A DNA stretch of 10,087 nucleotides from Promethearchaeota archaeon (GTDB taxonomy: Archaea > Asgardarchaeota > Lokiarchaeia > Sigyniarchaeales > SOKP01), in assembly GCA_048940645.1 (NCBI GenBank), contig JBHLOI010000090.1:1-10087 (forward strand), in the 5' to 3' direction. Under the pieces are notes generated by a model. It was not told the DNA's origin. It saw only the letters and a program-made list of their open reading frames with translations, and did no database searches. The number at the start of each line of letters is the position of its first letter. Positions within the stretch are counted from its first letter, which is position 1. The position numbers and the translations under genes are program-made. Positions 1 through 6,119 of the stretch are shown one piece after another.

Positions 1-73
1 AGCCAGAGGGGAGATTTGAACTCCCGTTAACAACTCTGCAGGCTATCGCTCGACCAGTCTAAGCGACTCTGGC
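1..73 (-). tRNA. tRNA-Cys (anticodon GCA)
   Basis: Reverse complement folds as GCCAGAG TC GCTT AGACTGGTC GAGC G ATAGC CTGCAGA GTTGT TAAC GGGAG TTCAAAT CTCCC CTCTGGC T: 7-bp acceptor stem, D arm with GG, GCA anticodon, TTCAAAT T-loop and U73 discriminator typical of tRNA-Cys. No intron; any encoded CCA would lie outside the window. Confidence 0.95.
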
Positions 74-3390: not shown

Positions 3391-4464
3391 CTAAATCGAT
3401 TCTAGACCTACAATTTCAATTAACTTTTTCCTTTCCTGATCAGTTTTAGTAATTACTCCAAGATTTCCAATTTTTACATTCTTTAAACCGATATCTTTTA
3501 CTCTCTTGAAAGTCTCTAAAATCTCTGATAATTTAGGTTCACGGTAATTTTTTAATTTATACTGCGGAAAAAATGCTAAGATGTGAAAAGGAATTCTTTC
3601 ATCTACTTCAACAATTAGCCTAGCAATTTTTTCAAATTGCTCGATTTCCACCAGGTTGGGAATAAATACTGTAAGAATTTCTAAAATAAAATTTCTTTTT
3701 ACAATTTCTTTGGGGCTATTAAGTACAGTTTTATTTGAAGTTCCACATAATTTTCTATAGATATCTTCATCGTAAGCCTTAATATCAAGCCAGTAAGAGT
3801 CTAAACCAGATTTTTGAAAAATATCAAGATTCTTAGGAGTAAGGCCATAGCCATTGGTTTCTAAAAGTATCCAAATATTCTCGGTTTTTTCTTTAATCTT
3901 TTGAGAAACTTCTGCGTAAAATTTTGCTTGACACGCAATGTCTCCACCTGTGAATGCTATAATGTTTCTTGCTGGTCCAAATCCTTGAGGACTTAAAACA
4001 ATTTTATCCTTTGATAGTTTATTAGGACATATTGGACTTTTTTTGTTGTATAAAATACATGAGCCACAATGTTTACACATATCTGTGGCATAATACATTA
4101 AAGCTCGCTCTCTAGGTTCATGAACTGTAACCTGTTGTTCATATTCTCTACAAATTTCAGCTAATTGTTCTGTTGAGTACCAATCACCATTGAAATATTT
4201 CGAGAATTCCCATGAATGACATTTTAGACAATTATGATTGCAACCAGATTGATAAATTGAGAAGTAATCTTCTGGTCTTGATAAATGCATTGATGTTATT
4301 ACTCTCCAGTATTGGTTATTTTCAAATTTTAAAGTTCCTTTACATGCCATTTTTTCAATACCATTTTTAAGATATGTCTCGCATGCACCTTTATTATATC
4401 CTTGTTTTACCATATTACAACGTATTGATAAATTTTCATTCATAAACGATGTGCTTCCTCCCAT
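3391..4464 (-). CDS. Radical SAM protein, PflA/glycyl-radical activating enzyme-like
   Basis: GCNHNCLKCH (CxxxCxxC), FTGGD, ETNG, LDIKA and FFPQY motifs; extra CxxCxxC...CP insert. Confidence 0.88.
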   Translation of the reverse strand: MGGSTSFMNENLSIRCNMVKQGYNKGACETYLKNGIEKMACKGTLKFENNQYWRVITSMHLSRPEDYFSIYQSGCNHNCLKCHSWEFSKYFNGDWYSTEQLAEICREYEQQVTVHEPRERALMYYATDMCKHCGSCILYNKKSPICPNKLSKDKIVLSPQGFGPARNIIAFTGGDIACQAKFYAEVSQKIKEKTENIWILLETNGYGLTPKNLDIFQKSGLDSYWLDIKAYDEDIYRKLCGTSNKTVLNSPKEIVKRNFILEILTVFIPNLVEIEQFEKIARLIVEVDERIPFHILAFFPQYKLKNYREPKLSEILETFKRVKDIGLKNVKIGNLGVITKTDQERKKLIEIVGLESI

Positions 4465-4485: not shown

Positions 4486-4974
4486 TCATAAATCTAATTG
4501 GTTATCATGATTGATTGCCCATTTCAATAAGGTTTTACTCTTTGTTGGAAAAATTTTAATTAAAACTCTTACAGCTGTTTTCCTCACTTCAGGATTTTCA
4601 TCTGAAAGTAAACTATTTTCAAGAATTCCATATACTTCCTTATTATTAAGATTAAGTAATTCAAAAGCTCTCAAACTATTTATTCTATCATCGACCTTTT
4701 CGCTTTTTTCTATAAAATTATTTAGTAATTTGATGGCTTCTGCTTTATTTAACTCTTTTCTTGTTACATACTCATAGATATTAGCTACTGTTAATTTTTG
4801 TTCCATAAATTCTAAAGCATCCTCATAAATAACTTCATTCAATTCTTTTCTTAAATCGTAAGAACATGAATGATTTTCTGGAATTCTGTGTTCGCTACAA
4901 AATGTTAGACCACAATATTTACATCTATAAGGTATTCCATTAATGATGGATTTACAAACATAGCAATTTGTCAA
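4486..4974 (-). CDS. AN1-type zinc finger fused to HEAT-like repeats
   Basis: CYVC-x10-CKYCGLTFCSEHRIPENHSC (AN1 pattern); C-terminal LLSDENPEVRKTAVRVL HEAT-like repeat; TTG start. Confidence 0.85.
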   Translation of the reverse strand: MTNCYVCKSIINGIPYRCKYCGLTFCSEHRIPENHSCSYDLRKELNEVIYEDALEFMEQKLTVANIYEYVTRKELNKAEAIKLLNNFIEKSEKVDDRINSLRAFELLNLNNKEVYGILENSLLSDENPEVRKTAVRVLIKIFPTKSKTLLKWAINHDNQLDL

Positions 4975-5135
4975 TATAATATACCTTATTTTATTTTAGA
5001 TAATTTTTTCTCAATACCTCGAAAAAAGAGTTAAAATTTTTAAAAATATAAGATCATAACGTTAAATTCTTATTTAAATAAAACGATGAGTTAATATCCT
5101 TTAAATAAAATATATACATAAAGAAGTACCTAAAT

Positions 5136-5244
5136 GGCTCCTGCCAATACCCTGGATTTTTGTCTTTTGATGGTGAATAAAAATTCACTATAATTCTTAT
5201 TTCTATATGATTATGGCCAATTATTTGGTCTTTTGGCAGGGGTC
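5136..5244 (+). ncRNA. Candidate structured non-coding RNA of unknown family
   Basis: 12-bp terminal stem GGCTCCTGCCAA/TTGGCAGGGGTC enclosing 2-3 hairpins; all non-Watson-Crick pairs are G-U on the + strand; TATATA at 5111-5116 and TTTT at 5249-5252. Confidence 0.45.
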
Positions 5245-5333
5245 TCCCTTTTAGTATAACAATATAATAGCAATGTATGAAATTGCTCATATTAATGACA
5301 ATATTAATTTTTAAAGATGAATAAAGTAAACTT

Positions 5334-6119
5334 ATGAAAATTGGATATGTTCAAAGTTCTCCAATATTTGGAAATAAAAGTAAAAATTTTGAACAAATAG
5401 AGGAATTAATAGCTAAGAAGAAGGCAGATTTGATTGTTTTACCTGAACTTTTTGCCACAGGTTATACATTTATCTCTAGAAAAGAAGTTAATAACCTAGC
5501 AGAAGGTAAAAACGGGGAAACTGCCAACTTTCTAAAAGACATCTCGAAAAAAACCGGTGCTATAATTGTTGGTGGCTTTATAGAAAAAGCTGGAGATGAT
5601 ATTTATAATTCCGCATTCTTGATATTAAATAATAATATCATTGGAATTTATCGGAAATTACATCTTTATTATAAAGAGAAATTATGGTTTAAACAAGGAA
5701 ATTTGGCTTTAGATGTTTTTGAAATTAAAGGTTTTACAATTGGTATGATGATTTGCTTTGATTGGTTTTTCCCAGAAACGATGCGATCTCTCTCTCTCCT
5801 TGGAGCGGATATAATAGCTCATCCTGCAAATTTAGTGCTTCCATATTGCCAGAAAGCTATGGTCATCCGTTGTTTAGAGAATAGAGTCTATGCAGTTACG
5901 TCCAACAGGATCGGTGAAGAAAAGAGAGGGCCTGACAACTTTTTATTCACTGGAGTAAGCCAGATTACTTCATATAATGGCGAAGTGCTTTCCCGAGCAC
6001 CAAGTGATGAATTATTTTTAGATTTCATAGATATTGACGTTAATAAGGCAAGAAATAAAAAGTTAAATGAATATAATGATTTGTTTAATGATAGAAGAGT
6101 CGATTATTATAGATTATAA
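5334..6119 (+). CDS. Nitrilase/carbon-nitrogen hydrolase family protein
   Basis: Catalytic triad motifs DLIVLPELF (E), YRKLHL (K), MICFDWFFPE (C); RCLENRVY and NRIG motifs. Confidence 0.93.
   Translation: MKIGYVQSSPIFGNKSKNFEQIEELIAKKKADLIVLPELFATGYTFISRKEVNNLAEGKNGETANFLKDISKKTGAIIVGGFIEKAGDDIYNSAFLILNNNIIGIYRKLHLYYKEKLWFKQGNLALDVFEIKGFTIGMMICFDWFFPETMRSLSLLGADIIAHPANLVLPYCQKAMVIRCLENRVYAVTSNRIGEEKRGPDNFLFTGVSQITSYNGEVLSRAPSDELFLDFIDIDVNKARNKKLNEYNDLFNDRRVDYYRL

Follow-up and report, generated by a model that had tools for sequence, protein, structure and literature searches.

Genomic Context of the RNA Gene

The window analysed here is a stretch of 10,087 nt from a contig of a Lokiarchaeial genome (Promethearchaeota archaeon, JBHLOI010000090.1). 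It contains a zf-AN1 gene on the minus strand (4486-4974) and a CN-hydrolase (nitrilase) gene (5334-6119), and between the two, at positions 5136-5252 of the plus strand, lies what is almost certainly a gene for a folded non-coding RNA, with a predicted transcript of about 117 nt that ends some 80 nt upstream of the nitrilase gene. The zf-AN1 gene, which is divergent from the RNA gene, encodes a fusion of an AN1-type zinc finger with HEAT repeats, and a tRNA-Cys (GCA) gene identified by ARAGORN occupies the edge of the window (1-73, minus strand). All three family covariance models match the RNA gene (R1, 73.2 bits, E 2.3e-18; R2, 89.8 bits; R3, 83.5 bits), which is with very high probability a stand-alone, divergent paralogue of an uncatalogued multi-copy family of Lokiarchaeial RNAs. 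The original prediction, made from the letters of the window, had proposed a novel, stand-alone RNA; the independent sRNA gene on the plus strand stands, while its uniqueness gives way to membership in a large multi-copy family.

Fold and Strand of the Window Copy

In the modelled structure the window RNA is a three-way junction, closed at its two ends by a long stem, P1, and with the hairpins P2 and P3 flanking linkers. P1 is formed by GGCTCCTGCCAA (5136-5147) and TTGGCAGGGGTC (5233-5244), which pair over 12 bp including G5137-U5243 and U5139-G5241. It is followed by a single-stranded U-box, CCCUGGAUUUUUGUCUUUUG (5150-5169), recognised by its invariance in the family, by the P2 hairpin AUGGUGAAU-AAAA-AUUCACUAU (5170-5191, with arms at 5170-5178 and 5183-5191), by a J2/3 linker (5192-5214) that is AU-rich in the window copy when compared with typical members, and by the P3 hairpin GGCCAA-UUAU-UUGGUC (5215-5230, with arms at 5215-5220 and 5225-5230 and the loop TTAT in the DNA). 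The octamer GTCTTTTG is present twice (5162-5169 and 5228-5235). The coordinates first proposed for the stem, the hairpins, the TATATA, the repeat and the TTTT were all correct on rechecking, and the closing stem and the two main hairpins fold as described, P1, P2 and P3 all covarying across the family. Not so the weak ATAATT/GATTAT stem placed at 5190-5214, which two uncompensated substitutions break in close orthologues (T5191->C in G045 and G047, A5210->C in G013). The minimum free energy (MFE) fold further contains a GGAU/GUCU mini-hairpin inside the U-box; because this mini-hairpin is lost in distant members, the U-box is read as single-stranded. A K-turn (L7Ae) reading of the P2 flanks was rejected, since inspection by eye showed that the GA/GA pattern is not maintained across lineages. 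A direct repeat (AATTCTTATTTAAATA and AATTCTTATTTCTATA, 88% identical) occurs in the upstream intergenic DNA (5065-5080) and in the J2/3 linker (5192-5207), and may be due to chance in AT-rich DNA.

Folding of the two strands, a check proposed along with the prediction, separates them well. The plus strand at 5134-5255 reaches an MFE of -37.8 kcal/mol against a mean of -23.3 kcal/mol for its dinucleotide shuffles (z -4.5; none of the 200 shuffles was as good), and its reverse complement, the minus strand, gives a z of -1.53, with 14 of 200 shuffles as good. The imperfect pairs of the window stems are indeed G-U on the plus strand.

A Multi-Copy RNA Family of Lokiarchaeia

A BLAST search with positions 5120-5260 returned a second copy in the same genome (C22:28880-29009, 74% identical) and several matches in each of the 24 same-genus genomes (24/24). 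Covariance model R1 was built from six clean members of other genomes, the window copy being left out, and its structure was set by hand (P1 of 8+5 bp, P2 of 7 bp, P3 of 5 bp). This model finds exactly two copies in the genome of the window, the one at C22 (160.9 bits) and that of the window itself, and it matches 41 of the 42 genomes of the genus. A wider model, R2, matches 99 of the 102 genomes sampled from the window's family, spread over 12 genera, with 1-18 copies per genome and typically two. Clear positives in the sister family come from two genera only (g8 and g9), one represented by a closed genome of 6.0 Mb with three copies (G065) and the other by a closed genome of 4.3 Mb with one. 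In a phylum-wide sample, searched with strict filters that may have missed weak homologues, the RNA was found in 27/27 genomes of the window's family and in 0/113 of other Asgard families; borderline model matches in G030, G025 and G032, one of them inside a 400-aa ORF, were not accepted.

An exact scan for the 19-mer CTGGATTTTTGTCTTTTGG, with one genome per prokaryotic species, retrieved at least 114 stretches, nearly all of them from MAGs titled Promethearchaeota or Promethearchaeia. A few of the MAGs are titled Odin-, Thor-, Hod- or Hermodarchaeota, of which at least two match G022 and G090, genomes placed in the window's own family and, for one of them, in its genus. Two full-length members, at 676-795 (76.8 bits) and 3645-3768 (61.5 bits), were also observed on a 14-kb contig titled as a Patescibacteria MAG (JANBVM010000030.1), which is probably a mis-binned Lokiarchaeial contig. 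Among viral contigs there were 14 exact 17-mer matches, 13 of which look like chance in coding-like DNA. The only full family member among them (36.6 bits; L155:7-141, minus strand) is found at the extreme end of IMGVR_UViG_3300029288_000001 (224,826 nt), a contig catalogued as viral in IMG/VR that could represent a piece of host DNA or a provirus.

Rfam 15 yielded only noise for the window and for eight typical members at E<=10, so that the proposed Infernal check leaves the window with no match at that threshold, and nothing on this RNA family was found in the papers searched. The Lokiarchaeial U-box sRNA family is a new and uncatalogued one, defined by models R1-R3.

Covariation and the Invariant U-Box

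The fold is carried by compensatory change. In alignment A4 (53 members) 96% of the cells are paired and 22/25 pairs are compensatory; in the more diverse alignment A6 (54 members) the corresponding values are 91.8% and 25/25. None of 500 shuffles reached the observed values, and pairing falls to only 28-47% of cells when partners are shifted by 1-3 columns; both alignments were fitted to the model, which favours structure, but the gap to the slid controls is still large. All eight outer pairs of P1 are compensatory in the family (98% of cells paired), as are 7/7 modelled pairs of P2 (93.6% paired) and 5/5 of P3 (100% paired). Family covariation in this way also supports the pairing of the two P1 arms of the window copy, GGCUCCUGCCAA and UUGGCAGGGGUC. 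P1 is in fact swapped wholesale among members, being GACUCCUG/CAGGAGUC in most copies, GCUCUCAG/CUGAGAGC in the locus L074 and CCGCAUGAA/UUCAUGCGG in the sister family. On the smaller scale of the orthologues, substitutions in the stems keep the pairing, a G-U of P3 becoming A-U or G-C and a U-G of P1 becoming U-A.

The U-box, (CCCUG)GAUUUUUGUCUUUUGG, located between the closing stem and the first hairpin, is the only universally conserved part of the RNA, and it stays unchanged while P1 changes completely among copies. The unpaired P1-P2 stretch CUGGAUUUUUGUCUUUU and the sequence CTGGATTTTTGTCTTTT are invariant in 26/26 members of alignment A1, and sister-family and distant members keep AUUUUGUCUUUU(U)GG and AUUUUGUCUUUUUGG, respectively. 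The form of the box common to the family, CUGGAUUUUUGUCUUUUGG, appears in the window at 5152-5170 as CTGGATTTTTGTCTTTTGA, with its last base changed. Because it is the only element kept in every lineage, the U-box is regarded as the functional site. The window copy has P1, P2 and P3 at the modelled positions, followed by (U/A)CC(C/U) and an oligo-U run.

Paralogue Lineages

The window copy belongs to a lineage here called type B, represented in seven genomes (G000, G045, G047, G013, G007, G054 and G055), in all of which (7/7) the RNA adjoins the zf-AN1/HEAT gene and the CN-hydrolase gene. Two further lineages were recognised: type A, the best-scoring or "primary" copy, is syntenic across genera and neighbours a 131-aa membrane protein, a 160-aa protein of unknown function and a radical-SAM gene, and in most of the remaining genomes of the genus the second copy is of type C. 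Type B retains P1, P2 and P3 together with the U-box and the UCCC-oligo-U end and has an AU-rich J2/3, where typical members carry UGAUUUCGCCCUCCUCCCCCUAUUUUAUUU.

In typical copies P2 is followed by UGAUUUCGCC and then by a C-rich tract (CGCCCUCCUCCCCC, also CCUCCUCCCCC), and a segment of 13-15 nt upstream of P1, AAAUAAAAUAGGG, is complementary to the interior CCCUAUUUUAUUU, as exemplified by L002:1640-1665 and L002:1548-1562 (both minus strand) and by the G008 paralogues in alignment A5. This upstream pairing tracks coordinated changes, with U-A, C-G and U-G variants at one position; two G008 paralogues combine AGAAAGAUU..AUGGGG with CCCUAUAAUCUUUCU, and type C copies combine UAAUAUAGGG with CCCUAUAUUA. 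Sixty copies with a strong upstream duplex contain 41 wobble pairs against 8 A.C mismatches, an excess that is no more than suggestive, since the copies are mutually related. The upstream motif of typical copies lies at -31..-21, with a variable spacer and then a conserved CAU|G downstream of it; it sits where a TATA element is expected, and may be either a transcribed leader that forms a pseudoknot or a promoter mirrored inside the RNA. In one copy (G011:C179, locus L034) the 5' edge of P1 carries a 12-nt duplication, AAAATGACTCCT|AAAATGACTCC, so that the upstream motif comes to lie at -54..-38. Sister-family members instead use the C-rich strand for local pairing, in a hairpin that covaries (CCCCG/CGGGG, CCUAUG/CAUAGG).

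Both the C-rich J2/3 tract and its upstream complement are absent from the window copy, a lineage-specific loss seen in all type B genomes; the best upstream duplex of the window copy reaches only -8.5 kcal/mol, and its upstream spacer is not conserved. Having neither the C-rich tract nor the long-range pairing, the window paralogue marks out the minimal conserved core of the family, namely P1, the U-box, P2 and P3.

Putative Promoter and Termini

A putative BRE/TATA promoter element, CCTTTAAATAAAATATATA, occupies positions 5098-5116, with TATATA at 5111-5116. The sequence CCTTTAAATAAAATATAT is invariant in four orthologues, and the 31 nt ending in CCTTTAAAT are unchanged in the four close orthologues except for A5107 and A5108, which are changed in three of the four. 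The spacer that comes next (-29..-2; 5117-5135 between the TATA-like box and the start of the RNA) varies: among the four close orthologues, 11/28 columns are variable in the upstream spacer versus 9/117 in the RNA body. Such an arrangement, with an invariant block, a variable spacer and a conserved body, is what one would expect if a promoter and its spacer preceded a structured RNA that starts near 5133-5136, where a probable transcription start is accordingly placed by this comparison. The TATA-like element lies at about -38..-20 from the first base of P1, a spacing that fits established archaeal promoter geometry, and is the positional equivalent of the AAATAAAATAGGG motif of typical family members. 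The stretch 5098-5116 is probably the BRE/TATA promoter of the window RNA, and the suggestion of a TATA-like box about 25 nt upstream of the stem gains support from the orthologue invariance and the variable spacer.

At the other end, (U/A)C(U/A)CC(C/U)UUU follows P1 in nearly all family members. The 3' tail of the window copy (5245-5252) consists of UCCC and an oligo-U run, and the TTTT at 5249-5252, anticipated after the stem from the start, is a probable archaeal terminator on the strength of established archaeal oligo-T termination.

Alternative Explanations for the Locus

Several other readings of the locus were weighed. A structured leader or riboswitch for the nitrilase gene at 5334-6119, which the original prediction had offered as its second option, would suit the common strand and close spacing of RNA and gene in G000, G045, G047, G013 and G007; it is nevertheless very unlikely, since the zf-AN1 gene intervenes between the two in G054 and G055, an oligo-U run stands directly 3' of P1, more than 95% of family members lie beside unrelated genes, and the "primary" copy is syntenic with entirely different ones. 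The copies of G008 illustrate this variety, their neighbours being a PNK/HAD protein, a subtilase, an mTERF protein, an LRR protein, an XPD helicase and a SpoU methylase, and no long-range conservation of neighbours was found between the sister-family (Lokiarchaeum-like) copies and those of the window's family. It is just as improbable that the locus is a MITE or another selfish repeat, in which P1 would be the terminal inverted repeat. The spread of copy numbers from 1 to 18, the 150-300 nt of upstream DNA that some paralogues have in common and the 12-nt duplication at the 5' end of the L034 copy would be in line with mobility, but genomes typically hold two copies, in loci syntenic across genera, which differ by compensatory changes instead of being near-identical, and the G-U bias indicates selection on the RNA. 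A count of copies, which had been named as the test for a MITE, gives two in the window's own genome, 74% identical, and the window copy is not flanked by a target-site duplication.

A known RNA with paired termini, whether a Y RNA, a vault RNA or a divergent 5S rRNA, is the least probable of these readings, even though the paired 5' and 3' ends, the length of about 120 nt and the oligo-U tail agree with it; the family gave no Rfam match at E<=10, and the likeness to Y and vault RNAs that had been remarked on comes down to paired termini, an architecture held in common only in that trivial sense. The TROVE/Ro protein of Y RNPs (PF05731) has no match in the window's own genome (89.6% complete), while control genomes did match; the search for MVP (PF01505) was negative in the same genome, with the control genomes also silent. 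As to 5S rRNA, its model RF00001 finds none in the window's genome or in 16/18 genomes of the genus, which would leave room for a divergent form. Against this, the paralogues within a genome are too divergent for rRNA, and a canonical 5S (68.6 bits) occurs alongside the family RNA in G035, so that the two are different molecules. The genus genomes that have no RF00001 match include assemblies 98-100% complete with 40-50 contigs, and 5/7 sampled sister-family genomes do match; the explanation is either a systematic loss of the 5S gene during binning or an unusual divergence of this gene in the window's family. As had been stated from the letters, the locus shows no tRNA, 5S or C/D-box signature: ARAGORN reports only the tRNA-Cys at 1-73, and neither it nor the Rfam models detect a tRNA, C/D-box or H/ACA sRNA at the locus. 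Two coding candidates were discarded. A 19-aa ORF on the plus strand, starting from the ATG at 5134, differs in frame from copy to copy, since 8-, 9- and 10-nt variants occur ahead of the U-box. The overlapping 78-aa ORF of the minus strand, whose conservation as a protein would have spoken against an RNA gene, loses its start or gains stops in 5/7 related loci.

A Possible Protein-Docking Scaffold

The best explanation of the locus as a whole, to which we assign a probability of about 0.7, is a stand-alone RNA gene, a type B paralogue, whose product would work as an RNP with a protein-docking U-box. The RNA would act in trans, in keeping with the different neighbours of its paralogues, and its scaffold would display the U-box, invariant and unpaired, between P1 and P2, where it would dock a conserved protein. 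The most likely partner would be an Sm-like (SmAP/LSm) ring, which is preferred because the AUUUUUG between the helices is Sm-site-like. This reading, of an independent RNP scaffold with a protein-bound U-box and most likely an Sm-like ring as the protein, is ranked first and is favoured, if only tentatively. The genome of the window encodes four LSM-domain ORFs; the one LSM paralogue profiled (139 aa) is present in all families of the class and therefore gives no co-distribution signal with the RNA, and no LSM genes were found near any of the RNA copies. The U-box also contains T5 and T4 runs, which could themselves be archaeal termination signals.

Judged by its sequence, the one invariant element of the family RNA looks like an Sm-type protein-docking site. 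With the Sm-class snRNAs of eukaryotes (U1, U2, U4, U5, U7) and the SmAP/Hfq sRNAs, the RNA has in common a length in the range of about 100-150 nt, stably paired ends, a single-stranded AU4-5G tract between helices, multi-copy paralogues and a host with several LSM proteins. The GUCU after this tract resembles the site of U7 snRNA, which is of the AAUUUGUCUAG type. The consensus of Sm sites is RAU4-6GR, and GAUUUUUGU, located between P1 and P2 and unpaired in the consensus fold, has U in place of its 3' purine. The Sm reading is drawn from this motif, and no sequence or Rfam relationship to Sm-class snRNAs was found; the family is limited to about two Lokiarchaeia families, and we know of no spliceosome in the archaeal host. 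That the family RNA forms the core of an Asgard Sm-ring RNP, a prokaryotic RNA with the build of the Sm-site domain of eukaryotic snRNAs and with a U7-like AUUUUUGUCU site bound by an LSm paralogue, is doubtful; if true, it would be a living analogue or relative of the RNPs ancestral to spliceosomal or U7-type snRNPs.

The second-ranked model, which we consider improbable though less so than the U7-like RNP, is a base-pairing "sibling" sRNA in which the U-box would be the seed for A-rich mRNA sites (CCAAAAGACAAAAAUCC), possibly with an Sm-like chaperone, in the manner of the Qrr or OmrA/B-type families. Bacterial sibling sRNAs (Qrr1-5, OmrA/B, LhrC; RsaE/RoxS) are likewise sets of paralogues with an invariant unpaired region on a variable scaffold; here too the multi-copy paralogues have one invariant single-stranded stretch in common, the genomic contexts of the copies are heterogeneous and LSM proteins are present in the genome, and the C-rich CCUCCUCCCCC tract of typical copies recalls the C-rich seeds of the RsaE/RoxS type. 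In contrast to such sRNAs, no targets are enriched: apart from the RNA genes, the window's own genome has no site with <=4 mismatches to the 21-nt complement, and complementary 12-mers number 26 versus 24 in a reversed control, after removal of 15 self-matches. The 19 invariant nt are longer than typical seeds, the C-rich, anti-SD-like tract is missing from the window copy and is paired locally in Lokiarchaeum-like (sister-family) members, and the RNA is a sealed three-way junction, whereas Hfq-type sRNAs do not have such a sealed-end scaffold.

A further resemblance is to the Hgc RNAs of Methanocaldococcus and Pyrococcus, orphan structured ncRNAs of AT-rich archaea without assigned function. 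These too are GC-rich structured islands in AT-rich intergenic DNA with promoters of their own; they differ in taxon and fold, and Rfam returns no match. Eukaryotes have their closest known relatives in the Asgard archaea, on whose non-coding RNAs, to our knowledge, almost nothing has been reported; the present RNA has a well-defined structure and is near-universal in one large Lokiarchaeial family. Should it prove to be expressed and LSm-bound, it would offer an experimentally accessible archaeal system for the study of Sm-RNP assembly; otherwise it would still be a lineage-defining housekeeping RNA that genome annotation has missed.

Sequences Adjoining Other Family Members

Some features were observed around other copies of the RNA. 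About 170-240 nt upstream of the C22 copy of the window's genome (G000), between the RNA gene and the divergent gene for the 131-aa membrane protein, there is a tandem direct repeat of about 33 nt, ACTATTCTGTCGATCAAAACTCGACAATTTTG/ACTATTCTGTCGATAAAAACTCGACAATTATT (L002:1795-1870, minus strand), which may be a regulator-binding site. Two paralogous loci of G008, L082:2128-4422 (C10) and L086 (C9b), are collinear except for about 2.4 kb of extra DNA in one of them; this segment contains a 765-aa ORF without a Pfam match and begins directly after the 3' end of the RNA, and could have arisen by insertion targeted to the end of that gene. In the same genome, two RNA copies are adjoined by genes for large repeated-mTERF proteins (L084:2905-4770 and L086:416-2110; PF02536, E 1.8e-32), members of a family best known from eukaryotic organelles.
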